NCBI GenBank assembly: GCA_963768835.1 | Contig: CAVYJB010000002.1 | Coordinates: 459,082-523,081, forward strand | Source of the DNA: an uncultured bacterium | Lineage (GTDB): Bacteria; Patescibacteriota; Minisyncoccia; UBA6257; GWB1-50-10 | Length of the DNA: 64,000 nt | Reading direction: 5' to 3' | Shown: piece by piece, positions 2,915 to 48,896 of the stretch | Layout of the letters: each line of letters opens with the position of its first letter | Numbering within the stretch: position 1 is the first letter of the stretch | Notes under the pieces: model-generated | What the model was told of the DNA's origin: nothing | The model's input: only the letters and a program-made list of their open reading frames with translations | Databases searched by the model: none | Made by a program: the position numbers and the translations under genes

Positions 2915-2918
2915 CATC

Positions 2919-3632: not shown

Positions 3633-3643
3633 CGAACACGACC

Positions 3644-4885: not shown

Positions 4886-4955
4886 CTGCGGAACCGTTCG
4901 TCGGCGGTAACCCCGCGGCTGGTGGATTGTAAAGTCGAAGAATATAATTTTTAAG

Positions 4956-9567: not shown

Positions 9568-9612
9568 CCTCTTGCGCTCCGCCCCTCGCTCAAGGTAGGG
9601 TGGAGATACGAT

Positions 9613-28100: not shown

Positions 28101-29243
28101 ATGTCAAAAACAGAAGCAAAAAAGGTTTTTGTCGCTATGAGTGGAGGAGTAGATTCCTCTGTTGCGGCGCTGCTGATGAAGAAGGCTGGGTACGACGTGA
28201 CCGGCGTCTTCATGCGTTGCTATAACCTTGACGGTTGTGCCGAGCGGGATGCGGAGGACGCCCGGCGCGTGGCGGACCATCTTGGTATTCCGTTCTACAC
28301 CTTCGATTTCGAGAAAGAATACAAAGCGAAGGTCGTCGAGTATATGATTGCGGGGTATCGGCAGGGGATTACCCCAAATCCGGACGTAATGTGCAATCGT
28401 GAGATAAAGTTCGGGTTATTTCTCACGAAAGCGCTCTCGCTGGGAGCGGAACATGTGGTGACTGGACACTATGTGCGGCTCGGAAAGCACGCTGATCGTT
28501 TTACGCTCCATATCGCGAATGACAAAAACAAGGACCAGAGTTATTTTCTCTGGACGCTTACACAGAAGGAACTCGAGCACTGCCTATTCCCCATCGGCGG
28601 TTATCTGAAAAGTGAGGTACGAGAGATGGCGAGAAAGGCAGAGTTACCGACTGCGGAGAAGAAGGATTCGCAGGGCGTCTGCTTTCTTGGTGATGTGGAC
28701 ATCTTCGATTTCCTGAGAAGGCACATCCCCGAAAAGCGGGGTGATATCGTGGTTGCCCTGCAAGGGATTGGAGGAGTAGTCTACCGCAAGGTGGGGGAGC
28801 ACCGCGGTGTTTGGTTCTATACCATAGGGCAGCGCCACGGTCTCGATCTGCGGGAGCCCGGGAAACTGCTTCGCCGTCGTGGTACAGAACCGACGGGGCC
28901 TTTCTACGTCGCAGCGAAGGATCTCAATACCAACACACTTGTTGTGGCGGAGGGAAACGATGCCCCCGCCCTGTTTCGAACGGAAATCACGCTTGCAGAC
29001 ACGAACTTGATTTCGGGGAATGCTCTGACTTCCGGCTCCAAGCTCTCGGTCCTTGCACGCGTGCGGTATCGGCAACCCGTTTCCGAAGCTATTCTTTCAT
29101 ATTTCAATTCAAACGAATCAATGAAAAATGAAGGTGTGGCAACACTTGTTTTTAAGAAGCCCCAGAAGTTTGTGGCTCCGGGTCAGTCCGCGGTCTTTTA
29201 TGAAGGAAGTGGGGAGATGCTCGGTGGAGGGGTAATCGAATAG
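28101..29243 (+). CDS. mnmA: tRNA-specific 2-thiouridylase
   Basis: PP-loop SGGVDSS, the catalytic Cys motifs NPDVMCN and CFLGD, and overall MnmA layout. Confidence 0.9.
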   Translation: MSKTEAKKVFVAMSGGVDSSVAALLMKKAGYDVTGVFMRCYNLDGCAERDAEDARRVADHLGIPFYTFDFEKEYKAKVVEYMIAGYRQGITPNPDVMCNREIKFGLFLTKALSLGAEHVVTGHYVRLGKHADRFTLHIANDKNKDQSYFLWTLTQKELEHCLFPIGGYLKSEVREMARKAELPTAEKKDSQGVCFLGDVDIFDFLRRHIPEKRGDIVVALQGIGGVVYRKVGEHRGVWFYTIGQRHGLDLREPGKLLRRRGTEPTGPFYVAAKDLNTNTLVVAEGNDAPALFRTEITLADTNLISGNALTSGSKLSVLARVRYRQPVSEAILSYFNSNESMKNEGVATLVFKKPQKFVAPGQSAVFYEGSGEMLGGGVIE

Positions 29244-35300: not shown

Positions 35301-38300
35301 ATCACCTACAACACCAATAGTAACATCACTTACGGTACCGTCATCGCCACGAGCACCAACGACCCGACGAACGGCGGCGATACCGTCATCCCAGAGACCT
35401 ACAACGATCAGAATCCATTCTCCGTCGCTTCAGCCATCGGTTTGGGTCAGGACGGTGAGTGGGATTTCTCGCTCGTAAGCAGTAGCTCTATGCCCACGAG
35501 CACCGCTTTTTGCTTCCGAGCGGTCAATACCAGCGGCCAGCTCCTTACGACTACGACCGCTACGCAGATCCCTGAGATCGATACCCCGAATATATCAGCG
35601 GGAAGTACGATCAGTGGCTACCTTTACTCGGACGAGGGGGTGACCCTCACGACCTCCACGGTGAAGATTGCGGTGAACGGGTCCACACAATTTTCCTCGA
35701 CGACGATCGCGAGCTGGTACAACCCCTCCTGGCTATATCGGAAGCTCATCACTATCACGGGTTCCTTGGTCTCGGGCACGCAGACGGGCTTCCCGGTGCT
35801 TGTGAACACCACGGATCCGAACTGGGCCTACACCGGTAATGGCGGGCACATGGGTTCCTCGACGGGATATGACGCGCTCTTTACCGCTGCGGACGGCGTG
35901 ACGAAGCTGAACCATGAGGTGGAGTCCTACAATGCCACGTCGGGCCAGCTCGTCGCGTGGGTGCAGATACCCCAACTCACGGCGAGCACCACCTTCTATA
36001 TCTACTACGGCAACGCGGGGGCCAGCAACCAGCAGAACGCGACCTCCACCTGGGATGTAAACTATGCGGGCGTCTGGCACATGAATGAGGTCGGAGCGGC
36101 GACCACGACCGTGCCCGATTCAACAGGAAACAGAAACACAGGGACAAAGCTTTCCGCGTCCCAACCTTTCGCAACCTCCGGTCCCATTGCGGGCGCCCTC
36201 GCGTTTGACGGAAGCGCGGCGAAGATCACCACACCGTTCACGGCGACAACAACGAGCTTTACGCTTTCGGGATGGGTCTACTCAACGAGTACCGCGACCA
36301 CCGGAACGGTCAATAACGCGATGGCAGGATCGGTAAACAGCTCACGAGGTTTCGCGTTCTGGCCGGAGTGGGGCAACCCGGCGCCGCCGCAACAAGATAA
36401 CCTCATTGTCTACGGCAGTTCCGGGACCGTATCTCTGCAGACCTCCGACAACTTCAACCGGGGCGGCTGGTTCTATTTTGTGGCAACATATGCGAGCCCC
36501 AATGCCACGGTATACAAGAATGGAGCGTTCCTGAACTCGCAGAGTGTCGCTGTCGGTACCACTACAAACGTAGGATTCGACATCGGGGATCGTGGGGATG
36601 GTGCCCATTTCTGGCCCGGTGACATCGCCGAGGTACGACTCTCGACTATCGCACGCTCGGCGGCCTGGATCCTCACCGAGTACAACAACCAGTCTGCGCC
36701 GGGCGTGTTCTACACAGTGGGTCCCGAGCTGGCTTCAGGTGAATACTCATTTACTCTAGGTTCCTCCCTGAACACTGGCGATGTCATCACGGTCTGGATG
36801 GGGAACGGCATCTCGGCGCGCACGGGCGCGACTGTTACCCGCTGGTCAAACTCCCTCTCCACGCTTTCAGGCCTCAACATCTACCAACAGCACCTTATCG
36901 CGCGCCACGAGGACACAGGACCCCTCACCGACGCGAATATTCTCCTCTGCTCGAAGACTGCGGGGAGCGCCTGCTCGGACCCCGACCTCCACTTTGCGGC
37001 AGGCACGAACCCCAGTGACCTCACGGTGGACCCCGACTGGGGCCTCTATCTCTGGGGGGGGAAAACCTTCTCGCCGAACGGGACAGTCACGCTTTCTGCG
37101 GGCACCACCTCTTCGACCTACGGCGGCACTTTGAAGTGGGGGTCCTCGTCCACGATGCTCGCGGCGAGCACCTCCACGCTCTCCATTGGGGGGAGCTGGC
37201 TGAATGCTGTGGATGGGCTATTCTTCTCGTCCTCAGGTCAGGTCACCTTTTTTACAGGGAGTTCCTCACCAGTCTACAGCGTGGATAGCACTGGCAATAG
37301 TTTCCAGAATATCGTGTTTGGGTCTTCGACGCCCGCGACCAGCACTGCCTGGTACAGCGCCTCCTGGCTCCACCGTAAACTTATCAATATAACCGGTTCC
37401 CTCGTATCCGGCACACAAACAAACTTCCCGGTCCTTGTCTCGACCGTCGATCCGAACTTGGCTTACACCGGGAACGGCGGCCACGTGGGGACCTCCACAG
37501 GGAACGATATCCTTTTCACCGCCGCGGACGGCGTGACGAAGCTGAACCACGAGATCGAATCCTACACTTCCTCGACTGGGGCGCTTGTGGCCTGGGTTCA
37601 GGTGCCACAGCTTACCTCGACTACAAGTCTCTATATTTATTACGGCAACGCGGGGGCCAGCAACCAGCAAAACGCGACCTCCACCTGGGACCCCACTTTC
37701 TTGGGGGTTTGGCACTTAGGGGATTCTGCAAGCTCTGCCACCTCGATCGACTCCACCGGGAATGGGTATAGTGCAAAGAAGCAGGCGGTGAACAATCCGG
37801 CCGCGATTTCGACTGGCACTATTGATGGAGCTTCCTCCTTCAATGGCTCAACATCCTTCGCCTCCACATCCAAGCCGCTGAATTTGAATTCCACCACCAC
37901 AATCAGCGCTTGGGTTAAGCGCTACACAACTGGGGCCATCCAGCTCTACTTCACGAAGACAGATGCGCATGCTGGCAACTCCGACTACGCCGTCGGCTTC
38001 GAGGGCCCAGGGGCCAATGTCGACAAGTTCCAGTTTTGGGACAGCAATCTCAATCCCGGAACTCTCTATGCAGCACGTACGATTACCGATACCAATTGGC
38101 ACCAGCTTGTAGTAGTCACTGACTTCCATTGGTATGCAAGTTTCTATGTTGATGGCGCATTCGTGAACACAGGGACATACGATGGGAATAATAGCCAAAC
38201 CATCCATTCTTATCCCACTCACATCGGAGACGCGTTCGGGAACGCTCCTGATCTTTATTGGATGAATGGCGCGGTCGACGAACTTCGCGTCGCTTCCTCC

Positions 38301-41300
38301 CCCCGCTCGGCGGCCTGGATTCTCACCGAGTTTAACAATGAGTCCTCACCAGGCACCTTCTTAACGGTGAAGCCGGAGGATAGCTACCCGGGCGGTGTTT
38401 GGAACATCACGAGTGATTTAAATGCGAGCGGGAATCTTGCGGTTGTGACCGGGACGGTGGTGGGCTCCGCGAACGTCCTCATCGCGGGTGGGAACGCTAC
38501 GAGCAGCGGCGGCACGCTTAGCTTCGCAGGCGGTACCTTCACGCTTGCGCACCCCGGTTTCTACGGTGGTCTCCAGCCGTGGAGTCTCTACAACTTCATA
38601 GCTAGCTCCGGGGCCTCCGGCATCACCACAACCACTGGCACGGGCACCACAACGGTTACGGGCGCCTTCACTATCTGGCCGGGCTCCGGGTTCAACGCCG
38701 CGACCTCCACCTTTGTCCTTACAGCGATCTCCGGGGCGCCTTTCGTTCCCCAGGGCACCTTCCTGCCCGCCACCTCGACGGTCCTCTTCACGGGTGACGG
38801 CAACATTACAATCGCCTCCACGACCTACTATAATCTCACCCTCAGCCCAACCTTGACGGCAAGCCGAGCTTATAGTTTGGGAGGGCCGGGCATTATTCAG
38901 TTCATCCAAGCCACCTCGACGGTCACAACTACCACGGCGGCCTCTGTCACTTTCCCTTCGCCGGTAGGGGCAGGCGACACCATTATCGGCAGCATGATCG
39001 AGCCATCCGGTAGTACGGTCCAAGTCGGTGACACGCGGGGGAATTCCTACACCATTGCCGTTGGATCCTTCCCCGATCCCTTGGGCGACCTGATCTATAT
39101 GTTCTATGCCCCGAATGTGGCGGGCGGGCCAACCACGGTTATTGCCACGAGCTCTCTTGCCTCCCCGGCCTTCAATGAGCTCAACATTACCGAGTATAGC
39201 GGCCTCAATACCGTGAGCTCGTTGGACGCCATCTCCACTGGCACCAGCGTCGGCGGTGGTGTGAACCCCACAACTGCCACCACGACCATCACCTCTGCGA
39301 AGGAGCTCATCTGGGCCTACGGCCCGGATCTCGGTAGCGGCCTCAGTGCGGGGGCGAGTTTCACACCTCGGCTCGTCACGCAGGGCGATACCGTCGAAGA
39401 CAAAATCGTGTCCACTGCGGGATCCTACAGCGCCTACATGATTGCCACCACTACGAGCAACTGGGCCATCGTGATGGGGACTTTTAAGACGGGCCCAGGA
39501 TCCGGTATCCCTGGTGCGACAACAATCAACAACAATTTCCTTATCAACCCCACCTCCTCGAGTGCTCTGAACCTCGATGTAACTCTTGCCTCCACAACCA
39601 CCGTTCTTGGTGGGACGACCGTAATGAGTGGCGGTTCCTCCACTTCCACCCTCGACACGACGCCCTCAAACTCTTCCCTCACGACCGGGAATCTTACAAT
39701 CCAGGCGGGGGACGGTATGAATGCGAACGGTTCAAACGTGACCTTGACCGGCATCAACTCTCCTCTCGTTAATAACGGCCTCCTTTCCGTCGGCACCTCC
39801 ACCTTCATATACACCGGCGCCGGGGCCACGGTTGTTAACGCAAGCACCACGTACTGGAACCTTACGCTCCAGCCCGTATCCTCAGGCGCCGCTTTCGGGT
39901 ACCAGATGGCAACAGGCACCCCACTCACAGTTTCAAGCACGCTGAATGTGAACGGGTCAGGCGATGAAGGCGCAAACTGGACCCAGGCGACCTCGAGCGC
40001 CGCGTGGGCCGGGCGGAAATCCGAACCCGCCCTCGTCTATCACGGAAAGCTCTGGCTCCTCGGGGGGCAGCTATCGGGGCCTGTGGCGACCTCGAGCGTC
40101 TGGTCCTCCTCGGACGGTGTGAACTGGACCTTTATGGGTTACGCGCCTTGGACTGCGCGCTACTCGGCGGCGGGGCTTGTGTATAAGGACAAGATGTGGA
40201 TCATGGGCGGTACAGACCAATCCGCGGCGCGGAAGAATGATGTCTGGTGGTCCACCGACGGCGTGAACTGGACCCAGGCCACCTCGTCCGCGACCTGGGC
40301 GGCGCGTGAAGCCCCCCGCGCCGTCGTGTTCAAGGGCTACATGTGGATTGTGGGGGGGTACATCGGCTCTGTCACCCATGATGTCTACTATTCGTCGAGC
40401 GGCATCGCATGGGCTACAGCGACGTCGAGCGCGAACTGGTCTATCCGCTACTACAACGCGTTGGTCGTCAAGGACGGGAAGATGTGGGTGTACGGAGGGT
40501 ACGGAGGCGTTGATGACTGTGCGAGCGGTTCCCGCAACGATGTCTGGTGGTCCTCCGACGGCGTGAACTGGACCCAGGCGACTGCAAGCGCTCCCTGGGC
40601 CTGCCGATGGCAGCTTTCCTACGGTGTCTACGACAACAAGCTGTGGGTGGTGGGAGGGTACGATAGCTCGGCCGGCTATAGGACTGATGCTTGGTACTCG
40701 CCGGACGGAGTGAACTGGACAATGGCCACGAGTGGGACTGCAACGAAAACAAATGACACGCCGCTTTTAGCTTTCCAGAACCGCCTCTGGAGAATCGGCG
40801 GCGAAAATGGATCGTATTTGAACAATGTCTGGTACACACCTTCCTCGACCCTCACTGTCACGCTCGGAGCTACCACGACCGTTGCCTCGACGACGAACGT
40901 AAATGCGGGCATCCTCGATGCAACTTCCTTAAACTACCCGCTGACGACCATGAATCTCGCAGTCGGGCCCGGTGGCACCCTCACTGGTCGCGGCTCAGCG
41001 CTCCTCGCGACGGGGGATGTCAGTATCAATGGGTACGGTCGTGACAACGGTGGCATCCTCCAATCTACGACCAACACCCTCACTATCCAGGGCAACTACA
41101 CCCAAACTGGCACCTTCGCAAGCGGCACGACAGGAACCGTTCTCTTCAACGGAAGCGCTCAGCAGGTTCTAGCGGGGGAGATGACGGGCGGGAACGCGTT
41201 CGGCCTCCTCACCTTCGCGAACAACTCCGGAGGCGATCCTTCTTCCACCCCCTCCCTCATCGTTTCCTCGTCGCTCGACGCCGCAACTTCCACCATCACG

Positions 41301-42644
41301 ACTGCGAACGTGAAGGTCCGCTGGACCGCGGGTGCGACAACCACCATCTTCAACGGCGTGAACTGGAACGGACAGGCGAGCACGACGCGCATCGCGTTTC
41401 GAAGTTCGGTCTCGGGCACGCCTTGGGGCCTTATCGTGGAATCAACCTCCTCTGTTTTCAACGTGGACACGAAAGATTCGAATGCTTGCGGCCAAGCTAC
41501 CTCCTCTGCCCCGAACACAGCGAACAGCGCGACGACCATTACGGCGGGCAACGGCACGAGCCTGGACAGCGGGGGGAACTACTGCTGGAGCTTCGCCTCC
41601 TCCACGCAGACCCAATCCATCACGCTCACCCTAGACACCAATACTTTAAATCTCCCGAGCCTGACGCCGGGGGCTCCGGTCAAGGCGACCACGACCGCGA
41701 CCGTTAGTATCACAAACACAGGTGGGAGCGGGTACACCCTCTTTTTCAATCGGATCGCCACGACCTCGACGCTCACAGCTTTGGGAAGTGGCGGCGCCTC
41801 CTCGTCGGGGCCCTTTAATACCGCGACCGTCGTGAACGATGTCACGACCGGCACGATTGCATGGACCAGTCCGGGGAATGCAACGACGAGCGATAACGTG
41901 GTGGCATCGTCCGGCGTCTTCGGCGTCGTGGAGTCGAACTATCTGAAAGCGACAAACTTCGGTTTCTCCATCCCCTCGACCGCCACGGTGACTGGCATCA
42001 AGGTAGAGGTGCGGCGGGAGGATTCGAACTTGAACGCCTATGATGCATCCGTTCGTATTGTGAAGGGCGGGACCATCCAGAACGCGGTTGACGAGGCGAG
42101 TTCGACCGTGTGGCCGGTGTCGATGGCTTACGCCACATACGGTTCCTCCACGGATCTTTGGGGTACCACGTGGGCGCCCTCCGACATCAACGCTTCGAAC
42201 TTCGGTTTCGTGTTGGCGTGCCGGGGGGTCAGCTTCGGGGACACCTGCTGGGTCGACCAGATCCGCATCACGGCTTATTACACGGTCCCCGGTTACACCG
42301 GTGTAGCCACCTTCCCCGACTACGCGGCCTGGGCACCGACCGGCACGACTTGTTCACCGGGAGAGGGGAATGGGACCACAACCCCCAACCGGGCCTTTTC
42401 CTTCCGCGTCCAACAATCCGGCACGAACTCCAATTACTGTACAAACTGGTGGGGAGCAAACGATACCCTAGGCACCGCCATCTACGCTGGTACTCCGACC
42501 TCAACCCAGACCATCATGAATTGTCCTACCTGCAATTCCGGTACCACCGTAACCTACATTCTCTATCAGGCGGACGCTCCGGCGACCCAACCGATCGCTA
42601 GTTATACGGGTCAGGTCACTATCACGGCGCTTGCGAACCCATAA
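29358..42644 (+). CDS. giant (4,428 aa) membrane-anchored multidomain surface protein
   Basis: Uninterrupted 13.3-kb ORF. The N-terminal TM (AIPIFILAAALAIVGTY) is followed by a P/S/T-rich linker.
The Gly-rich domain WTAPTNIYGTTTMEAWGAGGGGGGVNTSNEGGGGGGGGAY resembles PF12810.
Seven tandem ..IALNAASGTMYVAGYD...EWRIEARNLSDGSLIYAT.. units resemble SBBP beta-propeller repeats.
Two DUF2341-like modules (WLYRKLITITGSLVSGTQTGFPVLV...YIYYGNAGASNQQNATSTWD) are each followed by a LamG-like domain.
Six Kelch-like W..DGVNWT repeats follow.
The C-terminal domain ends ...YTGQVTITALANP*, the motif shared with the downstream small proteins. Confidence 0.85.
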   Translation: MTVPKPKTPRTRKPRVPKNPTVQPTPISDVLEGGRRTIYLRERFPRLVQLSRQRFAIPIFILAAALAIVGTYQALFVHADLTTLYPSSCLGGWRYPGNATGKPDIPLDIVPDLNQFTTANSAISDGGESPLFCGSFTGDTLDPAATITHVRLRFSLAAFFGLDAVKRGAAAAAAPAGNAPGDVPLLILDTRPSSTEPSALPEEGSSTPTEESFSTSSTGSTASPQVPSASSGQADSTDTSPTATDTPPTPSAPPVLPPPSDASGTLPSAALRTLAELFFPHAAAQEASASTPSTNPPQADSTSSPEADSIPSIDSGQANPPQAASAPNDETSTSPVLVSPPLPSVPSSTPPTSSTSSGEAPSGSAPPLELSASSTNATGTQNSELVPTSTSSSSPEESPAPSPEPPAPAPADTTSTAFLVVSYTLDGQTWQPLGYVTPDNWQQANFDVPVTSTDDISKLQVSVESVLTADQPPVVYLDGMALEVSYGPPPAPKSLTPEDINKLSRVQVDANKLFRAARHDFRAGETPSFEIDIPSSTDALLSSPSSSVSTSTLDAPGEETVPGASTTPSEGDIPSSSPASGFLDSLRKLAGIPDAAAQTSSSSIQRVEVLDIFNNPVDVQPQVVQNGNQIVINFPAPPRAFRPGRYQLDVEVLVGDTVYASEQDFTWGILALNLDRSIFTPGQTAYLQMAALSDEGDTLCNANLSLSITDPGGTVTHVPVQPGASCGPNNVTDVPDYTAHYSVGNTTGVYTITLENQDTGHTITDTFQVQNSVPFDVERIGATRINPFMSDYRMRFRVTANQGFDGTVQEQLPQGFAVIDPGGGDVAAGDAATILGWEVHLAAGQSIELSYVYRAPRVSPQFYLLGPAQFIHQAGVLDKIVGFLFSNLTGSQPPVVFQEARQWQLAADASNPATIRQEINILDHTFTAGTVATSSMEIVNLNPTQYATGTNTFYFEIVASTTGVVATATLQEAGGLIDATTTIPATATSSTLIRTAFTPNAATTNYIVGLQGLSSGSAYLQAARIVVKEAATNFTNTETQIEIGNYETGKTNTATSSLSKPKYWLYTSSSWDGTKTFYAEVTYQTSASVTTSSIASSSLYTAAGNFTWTAPTNIYGTTTMEAWGAGGGGGGVNTSNEGGGGGGGGAYARVNSSTTPAGTPLAVTVGAAGGAGASSGGTGGVGSTSTIATSTVVAQGGNGGVGNDGAGGTGTTTQSVGDVKFAGGTGSAGASASYSGGGGGGAGSTGAGGSVTATTTAGLGTTVGGGNGGAGRLSSSAGVGNNGNQAGGGGSGGYRGSSTNRAGGSGGPGEAKLTYSLLVTTTTFATTTVSLQEDNGAFGGWTDKLIILAAGVNTTSTRVRAGPFTPTDGRHYRLAFTNATTTRAFNIYNAKIIVDQAGNPTMLEPQYLLANTALGTGTSLQGFQTKWDSTEWSNVSNVYLHEVEATSSATSTIELDTTGGSQVAGSSIANPSNLATSTLTMPASQNFDVKATANYGGIYADRILVDVSSILPVFEQTAYRWYQNANIANLLFGVGGATSSNPSAGDDEANGIALNAASGTMYVAGYDNASGTEWRIEARNLSNGSLIYATNSIPTLNSPEANAIAINAASGTMYVVGSANPVLGNLQWRIEARNLSDGSLIYATTSNLAVGTNIATAIALNAASGTMYVAGYDNSLGGGDLEWRIEARNLSDGSLIYATTSNPTVNTNEATAIALNAASGTMYVAGYDSPSVSEWRIEARNLSNGSLIYATTTAPTAGGDQATSIALNTASGTMYVAGSENSTGKWRIEARNLSDGSLVYRQSLSLTTSDKAKTIALNTALGTMYVAGYDNFAADTEWHIEARNLSDGSQVYGTSSNPTAGLDEANGIALNAASGKMYVAGYDSGGGTEWRIEARNLSDGTLLSTITSLVPGTPLAAQNTSTTLGTVTASSTFRLRLLLKDSVATSTNSKFNLQVASTTVGNCPGNYTGLTYTNVPTSTGYITYNTNSNITYGTVIATSTNDPTNGGDTVIPETYNDQNPFSVASAIGLGQDGEWDFSLVSSSSMPTSTAFCFRAVNTSGQLLTTTTATQIPEIDTPNISAGSTISGYLYSDEGVTLTTSTVKIAVNGSTQFSSTTIASWYNPSWLYRKLITITGSLVSGTQTGFPVLVNTTDPNWAYTGNGGHMGSSTGYDALFTAADGVTKLNHEVESYNATSGQLVAWVQIPQLTASTTFYIYYGNAGASNQQNATSTWDVNYAGVWHMNEVGAATTTVPDSTGNRNTGTKLSASQPFATSGPIAGALAFDGSAAKITTPFTATTTSFTLSGWVYSTSTATTGTVNNAMAGSVNSSRGFAFWPEWGNPAPPQQDNLIVYGSSGTVSLQTSDNFNRGGWFYFVATYASPNATVYKNGAFLNSQSVAVGTTTNVGFDIGDRGDGAHFWPGDIAEVRLSTIARSAAWILTEYNNQSAPGVFYTVGPELASGEYSFTLGSSLNTGDVITVWMGNGISARTGATVTRWSNSLSTLSGLNIYQQHLIARHEDTGPLTDANILLCSKTAGSACSDPDLHFAAGTNPSDLTVDPDWGLYLWGGKTFSPNGTVTLSAGTTSSTYGGTLKWGSSSTMLAASTSTLSIGGSWLNAVDGLFFSSSGQVTFFTGSSSPVYSVDSTGNSFQNIVFGSSTPATSTAWYSASWLHRKLINITGSLVSGTQTNFPVLVSTVDPNLAYTGNGGHVGTSTGNDILFTAADGVTKLNHEIESYTSSTGALVAWVQVPQLTSTTSLYIYYGNAGASNQQNATSTWDPTFLGVWHLGDSASSATSIDSTGNGYSAKKQAVNNPAAISTGTIDGASSFNGSTSFASTSKPLNLNSTTTISAWVKRYTTGAIQLYFTKTDAHAGNSDYAVGFEGPGANVDKFQFWDSNLNPGTLYAARTITDTNWHQLVVVTDFHWYASFYVDGAFVNTGTYDGNNSQTIHSYPTHIGDAFGNAPDLYWMNGAVDELRVASSPRSAAWILTEFNNESSPGTFLTVKPEDSYPGGVWNITSDLNASGNLAVVTGTVVGSANVLIAGGNATSSGGTLSFAGGTFTLAHPGFYGGLQPWSLYNFIASSGASGITTTTGTGTTTVTGAFTIWPGSGFNAATSTFVLTAISGAPFVPQGTFLPATSTVLFTGDGNITIASTTYYNLTLSPTLTASRAYSLGGPGIIQFIQATSTVTTTTAASVTFPSPVGAGDTIIGSMIEPSGSTVQVGDTRGNSYTIAVGSFPDPLGDLIYMFYAPNVAGGPTTVIATSSLASPAFNELNITEYSGLNTVSSLDAISTGTSVGGGVNPTTATTTITSAKELIWAYGPDLGSGLSAGASFTPRLVTQGDTVEDKIVSTAGSYSAYMIATTTSNWAIVMGTFKTGPGSGIPGATTINNNFLINPTSSSALNLDVTLASTTTVLGGTTVMSGGSSTSTLDTTPSNSSLTTGNLTIQAGDGMNANGSNVTLTGINSPLVNNGLLSVGTSTFIYTGAGATVVNASTTYWNLTLQPVSSGAAFGYQMATGTPLTVSSTLNVNGSGDEGANWTQATSSAAWAGRKSEPALVYHGKLWLLGGQLSGPVATSSVWSSSDGVNWTFMGYAPWTARYSAAGLVYKDKMWIMGGTDQSAARKNDVWWSTDGVNWTQATSSATWAAREAPRAVVFKGYMWIVGGYIGSVTHDVYYSSSGIAWATATSSANWSIRYYNALVVKDGKMWVYGGYGGVDDCASGSRNDVWWSSDGVNWTQATASAPWACRWQLSYGVYDNKLWVVGGYDSSAGYRTDAWYSPDGVNWTMATSGTATKTNDTPLLAFQNRLWRIGGENGSYLNNVWYTPSSTLTVTLGATTTVASTTNVNAGILDATSLNYPLTTMNLAVGPGGTLTGRGSALLATGDVSINGYGRDNGGILQSTTNTLTIQGNYTQTGTFASGTTGTVLFNGSAQQVLAGEMTGGNAFGLLTFANNSGGDPSSTPSLIVSSSLDAATSTITTANVKVRWTAGATTTIFNGVNWNGQASTTRIAFRSSVSGTPWGLIVESTSSVFNVDTKDSNACGQATSSAPNTANSATTITAGNGTSLDSGGNYCWSFASSTQTQSITLTLDTNTLNLPSLTPGAPVKATTTATVSITNTGGSGYTLFFNRIATTSTLTALGSGGASSSGPFNTATVVNDVTTGTIAWTSPGNATTSDNVVASSGVFGVVESNYLKATNFGFSIPSTATVTGIKVEVRREDSNLNAYDASVRIVKGGTIQNAVDEASSTVWPVSMAYATYGSSTDLWGTTWAPSDINASNFGFVLACRGVSFGDTCWVDQIRITAYYTVPGYTGVATFPDYAAWAPTGTTCSPGEGNGTTTPNRAFSFRVQQSGTNSNYCTNWWGANDTLGTAIYAGTPTSTQTIMNCPTCNSGTTVTYILYQADAPATQPIASYTGQVTITALANP
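33960..35100 (+). repeat. seven tandem ~156-165-nt coding repeats (beta-propeller SBBP-like) within the giant gene
   Basis: TGGCGCATCGAAGCCCGCAACCT recurs near 34077, 34239, 34404, 34560, 34713, 34868 and 35024. Confidence 0.75.
35710..38380 (+). repeat. internal duplication of a ~1.0-kb DUF2341+LamG-like module (copies at ~35710-36730 and ~37350-38380)
   Basis: WYNPSWLYRKLITITGSLVSGTQTGFPVLVNTTDPNWAYTGNGGHMG...ARSAAWILTEYNN aligns with WYSASWLHRKLINITGSLVSGTQTNFPVLVSTVDPNLAYTGNGGHVG...PRSAAWILTEFNN. Confidence 0.75.
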
Positions 42645-42798: not shown

Positions 42799-43497
42799 AT
42801 GAGGAATCACATTAATTTAGAGACCGTTATAGGAGGGATTGCGGTTGTAGGCATGGCCGCGTTTATGTTCAGTGGAGTAGCGGGGTCGTTCTGGTCCGTT
42901 TTGGACATCCAGCACGCTTTTGCCGGCACTTCCACTTCGACCAACCAGACCATTAACCTGACCGTGAACCAGGTTATCACGCTTTTTCTTTCCACAACGA
43001 CGCTCACGCTGCCATCCCTCACGCCTGGCATCCCGGTTTCAGGGAATGCATCGGCAACCGTCACGACAAATGCCGACCAGGGTTTCCAGCTTCTCTTCAA
43101 TCGCGTGAATAACCCGACCTCGACCCTAACCTACGGCGCCACCTCGACCTTCCCGGATGCGACGAACACCTGGAACCCGACGTTGTTCGGTGGTGTTGGT
43201 AACGCAACAGACACGACCCGCACAGTGGTTCAGTCGGACCTTTCTTTCCGCGTGGCATCCTCTGGAACCACCGGTTCGCTCCTGAACACTTCGTACTGGG
43301 GTTCGGTTGACACGGACGGTGTTGGGCAGGCGGAGTATGCAGGTTTCCCGACCACAAGTCAGGTCGTTGCTTCGACAAGTACTTATACCGGTGTCTCGCA
43401 GATCATCACCTATAAGGTACGTGCGGACGCTCCGCTGACGCAACGATCCGGTACTTATTCCGGTCAGATTACCATCACAGCGACGGCGCAGCCATAG
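42799..43497 (+). CDS. small secreted WxL-like (SCPU/WxL-like) surface protein, member of a local paralog family
   Basis: Signal anchor followed by AGTSTSTNQTINLTVNQVITLFLSTTTLTLPSLTPGIPVSGNASATVTTNADQGFQL. The C-terminus RSGTYSGQITITATAQP* matches the C-terminus of the giant protein (YTGQVTITALANP*) and of 48226..48896 (YTGQITITATALP*). Start chosen downstream of the promoter element. Confidence 0.6.
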   Translation: MRNHINLETVIGGIAVVGMAAFMFSGVAGSFWSVLDIQHAFAGTSTSTNQTINLTVNQVITLFLSTTTLTLPSLTPGIPVSGNASATVTTNADQGFQLLFNRVNNPTSTLTYGATSTFPDATNTWNPTLFGGVGNATDTTRTVVQSDLSFRVASSGTTGSLLNTSYWGSVDTDGVGQAEYAGFPTTSQVVASTSTYTGVSQIITYKVRADAPLTQRSGTYSGQITITATAQP

Positions 43498-43685: not shown

Positions 43686-44591
43686 ATGAAGAGGAAAGTA
43701 TTCAGCCTTTCGGTTCTTGTTCTGTCAGTCGTGTTCGGTATGTTGCTTTTTCCATCCGCAGGTTTTGCGCAGGTGGGTATTTCTTTGTTCCCGATTAAGT
43801 TTCGCGTGACGATAAACCCGGGCGATACGTACTCCGACACGGTCACGGTCATGAACCCGAACAGCTTTCCAATTGGTGTCCAGCCAGAGATCGAGAACAT
43901 CGGTGGGGGCGATGAGGGCGCCATTACGCTCATTGCGGGCGATGCGCCCTACGGCCTCATGTCATGGATCCAGATGACCAAGGACCCGTTCACCCTAGCG
44001 CCGAACGAGCGACGCCAGGTACCTTTTAGCATCGTGATTCCCAAAGATGGTGAACCCGGTGGTCACTACGGAGCTATCCTTTTCCGAGCCATCCAACCCA
44101 CGAATGGCACTTCCACTCAAAGTGGTGTAGGAGTCTCGGGACGCGTCGGGAGTGTCATCTTGGTAGAGGTTCCTGGAGCGACCCAAAAGACCGGAGAACT
44201 CTACAATTTTACGGGCCCGTCTTATATGTCTCACGGACCCGTCACGTTCACTTTTCATGTAAAAGACACAGGAAACACTCACTTTGATCCCACTGGTGCG
44301 GTGACAGTGAGCGGATGGTTCATGGCGGACGCGGTGCTTCCTTTTGAGTCGCGCGTCGTCTTCCCGGGGTACTCGCGGACTTTCACGGCCACATGGCCGT
44401 CCCGCTATGCTTTTGGCCCGCTCACAGCAAAGGTGGAGGTACAAATGCCGGATGGAGGTACACAGGTAGCTACCCTGTCCTTCTTCGCGTTTCCATGGCA
44501 GGAAGGCCTTATCGTAGTGGTGGGCCTTTCCGCTCTGTGGTTTGTGGCTCGCTTTTTCAAACGAAAGTTCAAGATCGTGAAGGTTTCCTAG
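43686..44591 (+). CDS. CscA-like (DUF916/DUF3324-like) secreted protein with C-terminal transmembrane anchor
   Basis: Signal peptide (MKRKVFSLSVLVLSVVFGMLLFPSAGFAQ), beta-rich Ig-like domains (FPIKFRVTINPGDTYSDTVTVMNPNSFPIG ... HYGAILFRAIQP ... GRVGSVILVEVPG) and a C-terminal TM plus basic tail (LIVVVGLSALWFVARFFKRKFKIVKVS). This mirrors WxL-interacting proteins of Firmicutes csc clusters. The assignment is inference. Confidence 0.5.
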   Translation: MKRKVFSLSVLVLSVVFGMLLFPSAGFAQVGISLFPIKFRVTINPGDTYSDTVTVMNPNSFPIGVQPEIENIGGGDEGAITLIAGDAPYGLMSWIQMTKDPFTLAPNERRQVPFSIVIPKDGEPGGHYGAILFRAIQPTNGTSTQSGVGVSGRVGSVILVEVPGATQKTGELYNFTGPSYMSHGPVTFTFHVKDTGNTHFDPTGAVTVSGWFMADAVLPFESRVVFPGYSRTFTATWPSRYAFGPLTAKVEVQMPDGGTQVATLSFFAFPWQEGLIVVVGLSALWFVARFFKRKFKIVKVS

Positions 44592-44605: not shown

Positions 44606-45097
44606 ATGCGTATCTTGCACCCTTTTGCTCGTTCTTTTCTCGCATTTTTTTCTGCGCTCGTTCTTTCGATTGAGTTCCCCGCGCTGCCGATAGCCCGTGC
44701 GCAGATTTTGACGACTTCGAGTTCGCAGACCGTGACTGTTGAGGTCTGCCCCTGCGAGATTCCTCCACCTCCTCCACCGCCCCCCCCACCGCCTCCCAGT
44801 GGAGGCGGTGGGGGTGTTTTCGGCGGCACTCTTCTGTCACCGCTTCCCCCCGCGCCGGCGCGCCCTATACCCTCGAAGCGCATTCTCCGGTCGGTGGATT
44901 TCAACCACGATGGCAAGGTGGACATTATCGACCTCTCCATCCTTCTCTACTACTACAACCGTTTTAGGCCAGGGGTCGACCGTGCGGATGTTGATATCAA
45001 CGGTGATGGGGTCGTGGATCTAACCGATGTCTCTATCTTTCTCTATTATTGGGGCGGCTCCGGCGTCATCGAGGTGGCGAGTGGAACAGGAAATTGA
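44606..45097 (+). CDS. secreted dockerin-domain protein with poly-proline linker
   Basis: Signal peptide, P12 plus G5 linker, then two Ca-binding dockerin repeats (DFNHDGKVDIIDLSILLYYY and DINGDGVVDLTDVSIFLYYW). Confidence 0.6.
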   Translation: MRILHPFARSFLAFFSALVLSIEFPALPIARAQILTTSSSQTVTVEVCPCEIPPPPPPPPPPPPSGGGGGVFGGTLLSPLPPAPARPIPSKRILRSVDFNHDGKVDIIDLSILLYYYNRFRPGVDRADVDINGDGVVDLTDVSIFLYYWGGSGVIEVASGTGN

Positions 45098-45099
45098 CC

Positions 45100-46020
45100 A
45101 TGAGAAAGTTTTTTCCAATATTTATTGGATCCCTCGCGCTCCTTTGTGCGCCCGCTCTCGCGTCTGCGCGAGTAAGTTTCTCGTTCGAAGGATACACGCC
45201 GCCGGGACTTTCCGCCGCGGATTTTGGCGTTCGCATCCTCGTGGATTCAGATGAACCCGTAAATGCCTTTGATCTTATCGTGTCCTACCCAGTGGGGCTT
45301 GCAAAGCTTACCGGTATCGATACCAGCCGCTCCATTGCGGATCTCTGGCAGAGCTCTCTCACACCACCCGATGGGAACCAAGTCCCGCTCGTGGGCGCGG
45401 CTACCAAGCCGTTCATCGGGACCCACGGGGAGTTCGCGACCCTTATCTTTAATGGTCTGCGGGTTGGCTCAAGCACGCTCCATTTTGTCCAGGCGGATGT
45501 CTATCGTGCGGACGGAAAGGGGACGCTGGCCGAGGTGGAGACACAGGATCAGAGCCTTGCGCTCTACGCCGTGCAGGTGGAAACAACCTCCACAGAATCC
45601 GTGAGCGAGGCAAGCGGTGTAGGCCAGGTGCAAAATGGACCCACACCCGCAGGAGCGGGCCCCACTATCGGCGACCTTCGCATTGTGGACAACTCCTTCG
45701 CACCCGGAGAAAAACTTCTCATCTTTACGGTGGGAGAAACTAATGGCGTTCTCCGCCGTACAGCGGTCCGCACCCGTTCTTGGCTTTTTTGGAGCGCTTG
45801 GCAAGAGGCGCGGAACCCCTTTCCTGTTCCATCTGGCGCTTGGGCAGTGGATTTCGCCGCTGTCGACAGCCTTGGGAACGTAGCTGAGCGCGTGTTGTAT
45901 CGTTCCGACATTATATTGGAGAAGGGAGGCCTCGTCCTCGCGGTTATCATTCTCCTTTTGCTCGCTCGATACTATTTTGTGCGGAGGAGAAGAAAGCGCG
46001 CGCTCCAAAGTGTACAATAA
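45100..46020 (+). CDS. cohesin-domain protein with C-terminal transmembrane anchor
   Basis: Signal peptide followed by a cohesin-like beta-sandwich (FSFEGYTPPGLSAADFGVRILVDSDEPVNAFDLIVSYPVGLAKLTGID ... GEFATLIFNGLRVGSSTLHFVQADVY) and a C-terminal TM (LVLAVIILLLLARYYFVRRRRKRA). The ATG at 45100 sits 2 nt after the dockerin gene stop. Confidence 0.55.
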   Translation: MRKFFPIFIGSLALLCAPALASARVSFSFEGYTPPGLSAADFGVRILVDSDEPVNAFDLIVSYPVGLAKLTGIDTSRSIADLWQSSLTPPDGNQVPLVGAATKPFIGTHGEFATLIFNGLRVGSSTLHFVQADVYRADGKGTLAEVETQDQSLALYAVQVETTSTESVSEASGVGQVQNGPTPAGAGPTIGDLRIVDNSFAPGEKLLIFTVGETNGVLRRTAVRTRSWLFWSAWQEARNPFPVPSGAWAVDFAAVDSLGNVAERVLYRSDIILEKGGLVLAVIILLLLARYYFVRRRRKRALQSVQ

Positions 46021-46025
46021 GAAGC

Positions 46026-48137
46026 ATGGTGGGTTCCTTGCACTGTAGGGGGTGGATGCCCCGCACCGCAGCGCTGGCGGTTGTCTTTGCGCTCGCCGGA
46101 TTCACGATGGCGCCTTGCGCGTCCGCACAAAGCGACGTCAGCCCGGCATCGCTCTATGTGAGCCCTTCCACAGGAACCTTCACAGTGGGGAGCACTTTCA
46201 CGGTCTCCTTCTATCTGAACACCGGCGGTCAATCGGTGAACGCGCTTCAGGCAAACGTAATTTTCCCGCCGGACATGCTGCAGGTGGTCTCGCCCACCAC
46301 CGGGACCTCTTTCGTTCAATTCTGGACCTCGCAGCCGAGCTATTCGAACGGGGACGGGACCCTTTCGTTTCAAGGAGCGGTCGCCGCGCCGGGCATTAAT
46401 ACCTCGGCAGGCCTCATTGCCACCGTCACCTTCCGGGTCACGGCTCTGGGGACCGCGGTCATTAAATTTGCAGATAATTCCCGCGTCCTTTTGAACGACG
46501 GCCAGGGAACGAACGTTCTGGGCCAGACGAGCGGGGCTATCTATTCGCTTGCACTGCCGCCGCCTGCCGGTCCGATCGTGACCTCGCCCACAGATCCTGA
46601 CCAACAAAAATGGTACTCGAATTCCGATGTGTCCTTCGAGTGGCAACCGCAGGATGCTGCAGTCACGGGCTACAGCTATATCCTGAGCCATAACCCCTCC
46701 GACATTCCCGACGATATCGCGGAAGGGGACCAGACTTCCGTGTCCTATCCTAATCTCCCCGATGGCATCTATTATTTTCATATCAAGGCGCTCCGGAACG
46801 GAAGCTGGGGAGGCGTCACTTCTTATTCGGTGAAAATCGATGCCACGCCGCCCGCGACGTTTCCCATTGAGGTCTCGCCGGGTACGCGGACGACCCTCAG
46901 GAGTCCTATCATCTCGTTCATCACCACGGACAATCTCTCGGGCATCGACCACTATGAAGTGAAGGTGCTTCCGCTCACGCCCCTCCCGCCGTCCACGGGG
47001 AGCAACGCACCTTCGAGTGCCATCCAGCCTTTCTTCATCGAGGCCACAAGCCCCTATGTGCCGCAGCTCGATCTCGGGTCTTACGACATTATCGTTCGTG
47101 CTGTGGACCGCGCGGGGAATGAAACAGATTCGAAGACCCACATTGATGTGGTGACGCCGCTCTTCGAGGTGGTGAGCGGCGAGGGGCTTCGGGTGAACAA
47201 CACCTTCACCATTCCTTGGCTCGGTCTCTGGGCTACTCTCGCGGCTTTGGTGCCCCTTCTTTCTTATTTCGCATGGAAAGTGCGTCGTTCCCATCGCTTG
47301 ATACAGCTTAAGCTTGCGGAAGGCGCCCTCTCCGATCCGGTGATACGAAAACGTCTCGAGGAATTAAAAGCGAAGCGGCAGGAATATGCCAAGAAGGCGC
47401 TTCTCATATTTTTTGCCTTAGCATTCAGTCTCACGCTCGGGATTGGCTCGGTCCGCGCGGCCGCGACCTCCTCCATTTCTACCATTTCGCCGCCTCTCGT
47501 CACGCTCTATGGAAACAATATTTCAGACGCGGAGCTTCTCTACATCGGTGGGAAGTCCGAAGAGCTCGGTGCCACGGTCGAAGTCTATCTCCAGAACACC
47601 CACACGGGCGAGACGCTCTCTGAGGAGGCGGTGGTGGATCCCCAAGGCGAATGGTTCTACTCGTACCCCAAATTCCTCCAGGCAGGGAAGTATCTCCTTT
47701 GGACCCAGGTCAAGGCAGGCGACCAATTCTCGCCGCCGAGCCCGCAGCTCGAGGTGAACGTCGAGCCCACCGCGTTCCAGTTCGGCGCTTCCCGTGTGAG
47801 TTATGAACTTATTTATCTTGCGATCTCCGTCCTCCTCGCGCTTGTGATCCTCGGGTTCGTCAGTTTCATTCTCTACCACTTCGCTCAAGGGCGGCGGAAG
47901 CGCGCGCTCCTCGAGCGGGAGCTCCAGGAGGCGGAGGAGTCTATCCGGCGGGGGTTCGCCGTGCTCCGGCGCGACATTGAAGCGGAACTCGAGGTTATCC
48001 ACCGCGCAAAACTGCAGGGGGAACTTGCTATCGACGAGCGGGTACGTGAAGAAAAGCTTATCCGTGACCTCGACCTCGTACGGCGCTACATCGGGAAGGA
48101 GGTTTGGGATCTTGAGCGGTTCCGGCACATAGAGTAA
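46026..48137 (+). CDS. multi-pass membrane protein with N-terminal cohesin domain, Ig/Fn3-like domain and coiled coils
   Basis: The cohesin signature LYVSPSTGTFTVGSTFTVSFYLNTGGQSVNALQANVIFPPDMLQVVSP ... GLIATVTFRVTALGTAVIKFADNSRVL is followed by a beta-sandwich domain and three predicted TM helices separated by charged coiled-coil segments. Confidence 0.55.
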   Translation: MVGSLHCRGWMPRTAALAVVFALAGFTMAPCASAQSDVSPASLYVSPSTGTFTVGSTFTVSFYLNTGGQSVNALQANVIFPPDMLQVVSPTTGTSFVQFWTSQPSYSNGDGTLSFQGAVAAPGINTSAGLIATVTFRVTALGTAVIKFADNSRVLLNDGQGTNVLGQTSGAIYSLALPPPAGPIVTSPTDPDQQKWYSNSDVSFEWQPQDAAVTGYSYILSHNPSDIPDDIAEGDQTSVSYPNLPDGIYYFHIKALRNGSWGGVTSYSVKIDATPPATFPIEVSPGTRTTLRSPIISFITTDNLSGIDHYEVKVLPLTPLPPSTGSNAPSSAIQPFFIEATSPYVPQLDLGSYDIIVRAVDRAGNETDSKTHIDVVTPLFEVVSGEGLRVNNTFTIPWLGLWATLAALVPLLSYFAWKVRRSHRLIQLKLAEGALSDPVIRKRLEELKAKRQEYAKKALLIFFALAFSLTLGIGSVRAAATSSISTISPPLVTLYGNNISDAELLYIGGKSEELGATVEVYLQNTHTGETLSEEAVVDPQGEWFYSYPKFLQAGKYLLWTQVKAGDQFSPPSPQLEVNVEPTAFQFGASRVSYELIYLAISVLLALVILGFVSFILYHFAQGRRKRALLERELQEAEESIRRGFAVLRRDIEAELEVIHRAKLQGELAIDERVREEKLIRDLDLVRRYIGKEVWDLERFRHIE

Positions 48138-48192
48138 AGGTTTCGGAGCTTGGGAATTATCCACCGTCGGGGGTCCTTTGGGTACCCGATTG

Positions 48193-48201
48193 TGGTATAC
48201 T
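48193..48201 (+). promoter_or_regulatory. extended -10 promoter element TGGTATACT upstream of the WxL-like paralog
   Basis: TTGTGGTATACTCTAGG. Identical core to 42710-42718. Confidence 0.4.
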
Positions 48202-48225
48202 CTAGGTATAAATTCTCTTTCTGGT

Positions 48226-48896
48226 ATGCATAAGAGATTCGAGATTGGAACGGTTGTTATGGGATGTCTTCTCCTCGGAGGGATGAGCTTCCTTTTCTTC
48301 GGAGGTGGCTTTTTGGTATCTCTTTTTGCGCCAAACGTCCAAGCTGGTACTTCTACTTCTACCAATCAGACGGTGAGCGTCACCGTGAACCAGACTATTA
48401 CGCTCACGCTTGCTTCCACGACGCTTACGCTCCCGACTCTCACGCCCGGTACTCCGGTCTCGGCGATGTCGTCAGCAACCGTCGTGACAAATGCCGACCA
48501 GGGCTTCCAACTTTCTTCAGCCGCGTGAACAACCCGACCTCGACCCTAATCTACGGCGCCACCTCCACCTTCCCGGATGCGGTCGCGTTCGACGGGACGA
48601 CCAATACGACGACCGACACGACCGCAATCGGCGCGAACCTTCATTTCCGCGTGGCGTCCTCGGGGACACCAGGCGGCCTTTACAGCTCGAGTCTCTGGGG
48701 ACCGAACGACTCGGACGGGATTGGGGAACGCGGAGTACTCGGGTTTTCCGACTACAAGCAAAGTCGTCGCCTCGACGAGCACCTACGCTGGTGTCTCGGA
48801 GACCATCACGTACAAGGGCGTGCGAACGCGCCAGGCACGCAGCGGTCCGGTAACTATACCGGCCAGATTACGATTACCGCGACGGCGCTACCGTAG
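48226..48896 (+). pseudogene. WxL-like small secreted protein paralog interrupted by three apparent 1-nt frameshifts
   Basis: Matches ORF 42799..43497 across three reading frames: MHKRFEIG...NADQGFQL in frame A to 48528, RVNNPTSTLIYGATSTFPDA... in frame B, and a middle AEYSGFPTTSKVVASTSTYAGVSETITYK segment in frame C. It returns to ...GNYTGQITITATALP*. One frameshift maps to a 1-nt deletion in CTTCTCTTC>CTTTCTTC. Confidence 0.6.

Follow-up and report, generated by a model that had tools for sequence, protein, structure and literature searches.

Cohesin and dockerin modules are best known from cellulosomes, and the type I, II and III pairs of Clostridium thermocellum and Ruminococcus flavefaciens belong to the same two Pfam families as three adjacent genes, g4, g5 and g6, that we describe here from a 64,000-nucleotide stretch of an uncultured patescibacterial genome (assembly GCA_963768835.1, contig CAVYJB010000002.1, positions 459,082 to 523,081; hereafter the window). 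As in cellulosomes, the dockerin of g4 is a C-terminal tandem F-hand with D-x-N-x-D-G-x-x-D-x-x-D loops that follows a flexible linker, and the cohesins of g5 and g6 are beta-sandwiches on cell-anchored proteins. In contrast to cellulosomes, the trio comes without enzymes, carbohydrate-binding modules (CBM) or a multi-cohesin scaffoldin and consists of one dockerin and two single-cohesin proteins, anchored by transmembrane (TM) helices rather than by SLH domains or sortase. The g4 dockerin is also of a distinct subtype, with hydrophobic residues at loop positions 10 and 11 and a ...YYWTG end in which the tryptophan is invariant.

Pairs outside cellulose degradation, like the trio in this respect, are known from Clostridium perfringens (NagJ/GH84C), the Ruminococcus bromii amylosome and Archaeoglobus fulgidus (2xdh). 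The cohesin+FN3 part of g6 is structurally closest to the C. perfringens structure 2w1n, the best match of the g4 dockerin is R. bromii Amy12, and a g5 profile weakly reaches the NagJ cohesins and 2xdh. These systems join enzymes or toxins, whereas the trio comprises membrane proteins and a tiny candidate adaptor, encoded beside pilin-like and giant adhesin genes.

Candidate Phyla Radiation (CPR) bacteria may make up much of bacterial diversity, their way of life is believed to be one of attachment to hosts, and there are few accounts of how their giant surface proteins and filaments hold on to a wall-poor, single-membrane envelope. One described case is the Pam pilus of Ca. Mycosynbacter amalyticus, a monoderm CPR bacterium, which is built from immunoglobulin (Ig)-like donor-strand-exchange pilins and has been reported mainly from Saccharimonadia and Microgenomatia; its PapD-like chaperones each combine two Ig domains with a TM helix at the C-terminus, and for its membrane-anchored terminator PamR, insertion of an N-terminal strand into the last pilin is predicted, which would tie the fibre to the membrane (10.64898/2026.03.03.709456). 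Cohesins and dockerins go unmentioned in that preprint, and in the locus described here the anchor would be split between a strand-bearing dockerin adaptor and separate membrane cohesins.

Firmicute WxL (Csc) clusters combine a small domain-only protein, a large protein that carries the same C-terminal domain behind host-binding modules, and a DUF916-type WxLIP with two Ig domains and a C-terminal TM helix (PMC10599100; PMC1534035), and, according to prediction, the WxL sandwich is completed by a strand of WxLIP (PMC10599100). The same logic is found in the window, where the small proteins g2 and g7 consist of a domain that the giant protein g1 also carries at its C-terminus, and where g3 gives weak WxLIP_PGBD matches; WxL clusters, however, have no cohesin-dockerin trio, and g2, g7 and g1 have neither a Pfam WxL match nor W-x-L motifs. 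The fold of g2 is similar to that of subunits of the TasA/TapA fibres of Bacillus subtilis and of chaperone-usher pili (Csu, CFA/I, Fim and Pap), in which strand-only or strand-first accessory proteins such as TapA and PapH nucleate, or terminate and anchor, a donor-strand fibre (PMC10151520).

Elsewhere, an essential dockerin protein, SEML1_0315 of Southlakia epibionticum, has been noted in passing in a Saccharibacterium (PMC10633639), and cohesin and dockerin proteins of CPR bacteria were interpreted as cellulosome parts in a published metaproteome study. A literature search returned no paper treating this operon and none joining cohesin, dockerin and Parcubacteria, those mentions of cohesins or dockerins in Patescibacteria or CPR that were consulted being incidental.

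A conserved dockerin-cohesin-cohesin operon

The genes g1 to g7 form one tightly packed operon on the + strand amid housekeeping genes, with mnmA upstream (28101-29243) and aspS and ndk downstream. We found g4, g5 and g6 where the preliminary description of the window had placed them, on the + strand, separated by gaps of 14 nt (g3/g4), 2 nt (g4/g5) and 5 nt (g5/g6). Pfam was scanned over 37 open reading frames (ORFs) of the window, and membrane segments and signal peptides were assigned by hydropathy.

44606-45097, + strand: g4, 163-aa secreted dockerin protein (Pfam, phmmer)
44606-44701, + strand: signal peptide of g4, aa 1-32, ending ARA/Q (sequence, hydropathy)
44702-44758, + strand: mature N-terminal beta-strand-prone peptide of g4, QILTTSSSQTVTVEVCPCE, candidate donor or capping strand
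44759-44893, + strand: Pro12-Ser-Gly5 and Pro-rich flexible linker of g4 (sequence)
44894-45058, + strand: C-terminal dockerin of g4, aa 97-151, with two F-hand Ca loops (Pfam, solved dockerins, conservation)
45100-46020, + strand: g5, 306-aa cohesin type-I membrane protein (BLASTP, profile methods, hydropathy)
46026-48137, + strand: g6, 703-aa cohesin three-pass membrane protein (Pfam, AlphaFold2, Foldseek, hydropathy)

After its signal peptide g4 runs through 19 residues (QILTTSSSQTVTVEVCPCE), P12-S-G5 and a Pro-rich linker into the dockerin. The preliminary description had recognised a duplicated Ca-binding dockerin segment behind poly-Pro/poly-Gly in this secreted protein, and this was borne out by a Dockerin_1 (PF00404) match of 35.2 bits against a gathering cut-off of 22.9 and by phmmer matches to solved dockerins (R. 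bromii Amy12, E 6.8e-6; 2y3n_B, E 1.6e-4). Dockerins are defined by two tandem 12-residue loops (D1, N/D3, D5, D/N9, D12), each with a predicted helix; the g4 loops, DFNHDGKVDIID and DINGDGVVDLTD, both carry D, N, D, D and D at positions 1, 3, 5, 9 and 12, and are followed by the helices DLSILLYYY (first) and DVSIFLYYW (second). The Ca-coordinating Asp/Asn positions, which had been put forward as a check, are intact in both loops and conserved in 71 orthologs: D98 in 71/71, N100 as 60 N and 10 S, D102 in 68/71 and D109 in 71/71 for loop 1, and D130 in 70/71, N132 as 53 N, 7 S and 7 D, D134 as 48 D and 18 N, and D141 in 71/71 for loop 2; position 9 is D or N. S111, S143 and W149 are invariant in the same orthologs, and the C-terminal end reads YYWTG in most of them. 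PF00404 is a precomputed match in most of 120 listed relatives of the dockerin profile, and weak EF-hand and FG-GAP Pfam matches overlap the g4 loops. No second dockerin was found in a six-frame translation of the 64-kb window. A homolog search with the 63-aa dockerin alone gave 2 candidates, and a profile search gave mostly 50-110-aa fragments at contig ends, which are uninformative on other cargo with the same dockerin subtype.

Within the g4 linker coding sequence, at 44777-44826, (CCN)n and then (GGN)n runs are mutually reverse complementary and make a GC-rich hairpin (RNA fold -41.9 kcal/mol, z -6.0 against shuffles) with a 14-bp stem and a T-rich stretch on its 3' side, which was flagged by a terminator scan. 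Either the coding sequence produces this hairpin incidentally, or it may act as an RNA structure or attenuator inside the gene.

Two cohesin genes had been proposed downstream of g4. For g6 this held on Pfam directly (Cohesin, PF00963, 34.2 bits against 24.1), whereas g5 alone had no Pfam match, the Cohesin gathering cut-off included, and was recovered by profile methods. The g6 protein has a signal peptide and an ectodomain composed of a cohesin (aa 38-178), an Fn3/Y_Y_Y-like module (185-271) and an Ig domain (281-397), followed by a TM hairpin (398-470), a second ecto Ig domain (491-580), a third TM helix and an 85-aa helical cytoplasmic tail (593-702). The Fn3/Ig-like domain noted earlier beside the cohesin was recovered as a Y_Y_Y match (27.0 bits against 26.6), with Big_13 at 26.8 against 27, and as Fn3-like and Ig modules in an AlphaFold2 model with a predicted local distance difference test (pLDDT) score of 78 overall and ~90 over the cohesin. 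In this model residues 41-176 are all-beta, as in the beta-sandwich cohesin fold, and the C-terminal tail is helical over ~85 residues; a Foldseek search with it placed C. perfringens GH84C (2w1n, cohesin+FN3 module) in third position (E 1.5e-11, TMt 0.47). The cohesin is the most conserved region of g6, with 62% identity to the window sequence, which is unusual for an exposed domain and consistent with a fixed partner.

The g5 protein is laid out as a signal peptide, a cohesin (~aa 22-160), an Ig-like module (~aa 180-268), a C-terminal TM helix and an RRRRKR tail, so that the C-terminal or multiple TM helices described earlier are seen as one in g5 and three in g6. Orthologs of g5 scored 23.3, 22.3 and 14.4 bits on Pfam Cohesin against the cut-off of 24.1, and BLASTP aligned g5 to the g6 cohesin with E 7e-5. 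A 56-ortholog g5 profile matched the g6 family over both cohesin and Ig modules (hhalign probability 100%, E 5.7e-41) and also the solved cohesins 5aoz (E 5.3e-5) and 5m2o (E 1.4e-4); g5 thus corresponds to the outer half of g6 as its shorter paralog, a cohesin identified by profile evidence only. Hydropathy and positive-inside tails place both cohesins, by prediction, on the outer side of the membrane that anchors their proteins.

The full-length relatives of g6 number over 700, at ~50% identity, and every one with a name belongs to Patescibacteria, Parcubacteria or Paceibacterota; the label 'uncultured Candidatus Saccharibacteria', borne by many records, may be a generic one chosen by submitters. 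A scan of GTDB species genomes yielded 80 loci, including Liptonbacteria, Jorgensenbacteria, Colwellbacteria, Nomurabacteria, Kaiserbacteria and Spechtbacteria. The order g4-g5-g6 recurs almost everywhere among the related loci: a dockerin ORF lies <=1.5 kb from the first cohesin in 66 of the 67 loci with >1 kb of upstream sequence, a g5 homolog stands directly upstream of g6 in 65 distinct sequences, and exactly two cohesin domains are present in 62/81 loci. The trio is thus a fixed, lineage-wide operon in Parcubacteria/Paceibacteria, which is a new finding. Its presence in nearly every related genome examined, with g6 ~50% identical over order- to class-level distances, speaks for a central role in the envelope and less for an accessory adhesin. 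At least 21 related loci have a g1-like giant gene upstream of the trio.

In two records, L003 (10001-12907) and L004 (7814-10720), g5 and g6 are fused as a single 968-aa protein (P0076), which both records share. Locus L014 has a further ORF for a dockerin and another for a g6-like cohesin, which suggests partial duplication; in L056 the dockerin gene is divergent (9356-9943, - strand) and g5 is absent; and L077 has g6, with no dockerin or g5 within 10 kb upstream.

Ca-dependent binding of the g4 dockerin to a cognate cohesin is probable in view of the 66/67 adjacency and the invariant helix residues. That the trio forms a membrane tether is, in our judgement, highly likely. The preliminary description had taken the modules for a generic plug repurposed to tether the secreted dockerin protein to the membrane. 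The tether is supported by the predicted outward orientation of the cohesins, the adjacency of the genes and their short gaps, with the binding itself presumed, but 'generic' does not fit: one dockerin in 64 kb and exactly two cohesin domains in most loci indicate a dedicated set.

Upstream genes and the variable N-terminus of g4

Beyond what had been described before, the lineage-wide operon is tied to genes for a giant surface protein and for pilin-like and WxLIP-like proteins, and this context points to the tethered object. In the window these genes are as follows.

29358-42644, + strand: g1, 4428-aa giant surface protein (Pfam, hydropathy, BLASTP)
42799-43497, + strand: g2, 232-aa small secreted protein (longest ORF start 42709)
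43716-44591, + strand: g3, 291-aa anchored WxLIP-like protein (Pfam sub-threshold, hydropathy)
48178-48896, + strand: g7, frameshifted paralog of g2, in frames 48178-48528 and 48264-48896 (BLASTP, g2-domain hidden Markov model)

The mature g2 protein is a single Ig-like domain with a fold like that of donor-strand-exchange pilins and the C-terminal end YSGQITITATAQP. Its AlphaFold2 model (pLDDT 88.5, predicted TM-score 0.75) retrieved with Foldseek CfaB (E 3e-4), the PapG pilin domain, CS20, TasA, CsuE, FimG and Caf1; the scores are moderate, and the list, consistent in kind and made up mainly of donor-strand-exchange fibre subunits, supports a predicted Ig-like pilin fold. An exhaustive HMMER search gave 127 homologs of the g2 domain, which either makes up a stand-alone secreted protein of 200-240 aa or forms the C-terminus of proteins as large as 1876 aa, and the family has a conserved N-terminal extension, xTLxxTV. 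The domain may be an incomplete fold that is completed by a strand of its neighbour and so polymerises. No Pfam family reaches its cut-off, DUF4402 giving weak matches in 5/60 family members (best E 0.002). Assignment of g2 to the WxL family was considered and rejected, since Pfam WxL (PF13731) matched neither g2 nor g7 nor any of 60 family members and W-x-L motifs are missing, the C-terminal motif being YxGxITITAT, without Trp.

The g7 gene, downstream of the trio, matched g2 by BLASTP with E 6e-20 and 9e-34 for its two frames, both of which are also matched by the hidden Markov model (HMM) of the g2 domain. It is 46-56% identical to g2 and carries a 1-nt frameshift near 48510, where one T was apparently lost from a T run (…caactttcttcagcc…); either the gene is a true pseudogene or the metagenome-assembled genome is misassembled here.

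In g1, Pfam and hydropathy outlined an N-terminal TM/signal anchor, two DUF2341+Laminin_G_3 units, Kelch repeats, a Gly-rich domain, an MG2-like domain and Ser/Thr/Pro-rich spacers. The g2-type domain recurs at its C-terminus, at aa 4086-4140 and 4313-4428 (BLASTP of g2 against g1, E 1e-9 and 4e-15). About eight tandem 'ASGTMYVAGY…EWRIEARNLSDGSLIYATTSNP' repeats occupy ~aa 1560-2000, and the parts common to g1 and the giants of related loci are only the N-terminal 900 residues and the C-terminal domain.

The g3 protein has a signal peptide, one or more Ig-like ectodomains and a C-terminal TM helix followed by KRKFK. WxLIP_PGBD matches were obtained in 5/27 members of its family (best E 3.5e-6), DUF3324 did not match g3, and the family profile gave no PapD-like or other informative match against PDB sequences. 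We regard g3 as a candidate membrane-anchored chaperone or holder of WxLIP (DUF916)-like type.

In all g4 orthologs the dockerin lies at, or a few residues from, the C-terminus behind Gly/Pro-rich linkers, whereas the N-terminal part varies by lineage and may be a 65-aa STNF domain (pattern 'SSTNFxL…GFLYF'), a 170-aa YRW domain (pattern 'YRWY…DALTP'), Ig repeats, Fn3, Cys-rich modules or a bare strand, the folded modules measuring 65 to ~350 aa. This variation follows that of the upstream gene families, which we number F0 to F4. F0 is the g3 family, present in 25 loci and in most of them the immediate upstream neighbour of g4, and F4 has a C-terminal domain homologous to g2 (hhalign 95.8%). 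A YRW-type g4 accompanies F0 and F1 in 10/11 loci, a strand-type or Ig-type g4 accompanies F0 and F4, and an STNF-type g4 accompanies the small membrane proteins F2/F3 and never F0/F1. A constant C-terminal plug with a co-varying N-terminus fits the picture of an adaptor, though shared ancestry contributes to the pattern.

In STNF-type loci (L015 5434-6812, L017 5063-6218, L044 8435-8839 and L074 753-1791), F2 and F3 stand in place of g2- and g3-type genes, immediately upstream of the dockerin gene. They are small N-terminally anchored proteins, F3 of ~150-230 aa and F2 of ~135-190 aa with 'YQAVFLTNGQVYFGKL…LVKLGxELHGP'. The STNF mini-domain itself (L020 8573-9091, L044 8846-9331) has 65 aa, contains the strand motif 'S-S-T-N-F-x-L' three times and ends in GFLYF. 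One possibility is a small unit of three strands that joins another sheet; in the one example scanned with Pfam, from L020, the dockerin was the only match.

A proposed fastening mechanism and its alternatives

On balance we favour, by a modest margin over doubt, a reading in which g4, g5 and g6 form a dedicated cohesin-dockerin joint, with g4 as the adaptor that fastens a fibre or giant adhesin to the membrane of a monoderm CPR cell. The Sec system would export g5 and g6, which would remain membrane-bound and expose their N-terminal cohesins on the outside, and secreted g4 would bind one or both cohesins through its Ca-loaded C-terminal dockerin. Its lineage-variable N-terminal part would join the products of the upstream genes while the dockerin stays constant. 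In the window, the variable part of g4 would have shrunk to one beta-strand, carried on a long Pro/Gly tether and resembling the N-terminal extension of g2 and g7, and this strand would complete the Ig-like pilin domain of g2 or g7, or of the g1 C-terminus, by donor-strand complementation; the membrane-anchored, WxLIP-like g3 would hold or chaperone the pilin-like subunits. In sum, the cohesin-dockerin plug would fix a fibre or giant adhesin to the membrane. For g4 as a donor-strand adaptor we put the chances somewhat below even. The fully specified version, a donor-strand fibre or giant adhesin with a cohesin-dockerin anchor at its base, in which g4 gives its strand to the last pilin-like domain and its dockerin to the two membrane cohesin proteins, is more tentative still.

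The 19 residues that precede the tether are too few to fold alone. The best match of QILTTSSSQTVTVEVCPCE within g7 (score 25) and within g2 (score 20) lies at the mature N-terminus of each, and the score of 25 exceeds that of all 4413 positions of the S/T-rich g1 (maximum 24). Orthologs of g4 in pilin-type loci start with an xVS[IV]T[IV] strand, after which comes a flexible linker, and N-terminal mimicry is also seen in L066 and in L019/L035. Across loci, similarity between the N-termini of g4 and pilin-like proteins was 25.6 for cognate against 22.7 for non-cognate pairs (Mann-Whitney U test, p 0.01).

Several observations weigh against this proposal. The gap between cognate and non-cognate pairs is small and confounded by phylogeny, the strand similarity is short and of low complexity, and when the N-terminal extension of the pilins was modelled as an HMM from other genomes, g4 scored 3 bits, at rank 7 in the window; given this weak family-level result, the donor-strand idea draws on the cognate-specific similarity only. 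The g3 match to WxLIP_PGBD (24.1 bits, E 3.8e-5) lies below the cut-off of 27.3, and for F1 the hhalign match to the g2 domain (probability 49-69%) is confined to the last 29 residues. Between the giant gene and g4, STNF-type loci lack g2-like and g3-like genes, and the invariant trio is therefore not strictly dependent on pilin-like partners. Mirror-tree correlations with the dockerin, 0.61 for the g5 cohesin, 0.59 for the g5 Ig module and 0.43 for the g6 cohesin, single out no cohesin surface as its partner, and because the g5 Ig module correlates as well as the g5 cohesin, the signal reflects subtype or phylogeny, not an interface.

The same trio might serve for simple display, with g4 as the cargo, its variable N-terminal adhesive or binding modules carried on a tether and unlinked to the pilin-like genes or the giant, and the window copy a degenerate minimal one. 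This is essentially the model of the preliminary description, and it accommodates both the folded N-terminal modules of g4 orthologs and the retention of the trio at loci without pilin-like genes. The mature window protein, however, is too short ahead of its linker to display anything, yet the gene is intact and its dockerin conserved; moreover, the N-terminal module co-varies with the upstream genes and the N-terminal strand resembles those of the cognate pilin-like proteins, so that we consider display unlikely, though a serious competitor. Less likely again is that the near-symmetric dockerin halves, with their similar repeats, bridge the g5 and g6 cohesins into a membrane scaffold, possibly signalling to the cytoplasmic helices of g6, with the N-terminal modules of g4 as accessories. 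One dockerin per two cohesins (62/81 loci), the g5-g6 fusions and the conservation of g6, unusual for a surface protein and extending to its cytoplasmic helices, would suit such a clasp; but symmetric dockerins are known mainly to bind one cohesin, in either of two orientations, and a g5-g6 fusion would render bridging redundant.

Two further explanations carry very little weight with us. The 'dockerin' could be an EF-hand-like Ca module, a stabiliser or sensor that does not bind the neighbouring cohesins, as the weak EF-hand and FG-GAP matches over its loops might suggest and as for many non-cellulosomal dockerin-like modules without a known partner. Its adjacency to cohesin genes in all but one of 67 loci, and the invariance of predicted helix residues (S111, S143, W149 and the aromatic runs) beyond the Ca ligands, make this very improbable. 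Least probable is a cellulosome-like polysaccharide-degrading complex in which enzymes encoded elsewhere dock onto g5 and g6, for which one might cite the classical setting of these modules, the published metaproteome interpretation and the Laminin_G_3/ConA-like lectin modules of g1. We rejected it: the 37 scanned ORFs include no glycoside hydrolase, in agreement with the preliminary description, and no CBM; the single dockerin in 64 kb sits on a protein without an enzyme module; 70 g4 orthologs inspected by eye, four of them also scanned with Pfam, show no recognisable enzyme module; and each cohesin protein has a single cohesin, leaving no multi-cohesin scaffoldin. Cohesin and dockerin matches in CPR metagenomes should accordingly not be taken as evidence of cellulosomes.

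Should the adaptor model be true, it would give a concrete answer to how Parcubacteria anchor surface structures, testable with three small soluble domains expressible in E. coli, and would extend cohesin-dockerin biology from enzyme scaffolding to fibre anchoring. Firmicute WxL/WxLIP systems, the CPR Pam pilus and TasA or chaperone-usher fibres would then be versions of one monoderm strand-complementation theme. A donor-strand fibre on such a base would be the first cohesin-dockerin anchor of a pilus or adhesin and a second, mechanistically distinct form of the CPR Pam-type pilus, across one of the largest bacterial lineages.

Two other features of the window lie apart from the operon. A TraG/VirD4-like type IV coupling protein (24255-26180; TrwB_AAD_bind, TraG-D_C) is solitary amid housekeeping genes, with no further conjugation genes seen nearby. 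At 1172-6812, an HlyD-like adaptor and a MacB/FtsX-type permease, with an ORF at 2889-3632 between them that was left out of the Pfam scan, are followed by a 618-aa protein with a C-terminal PG_binding_1 domain; together they make an envelope export module in an organism without an outer membrane.

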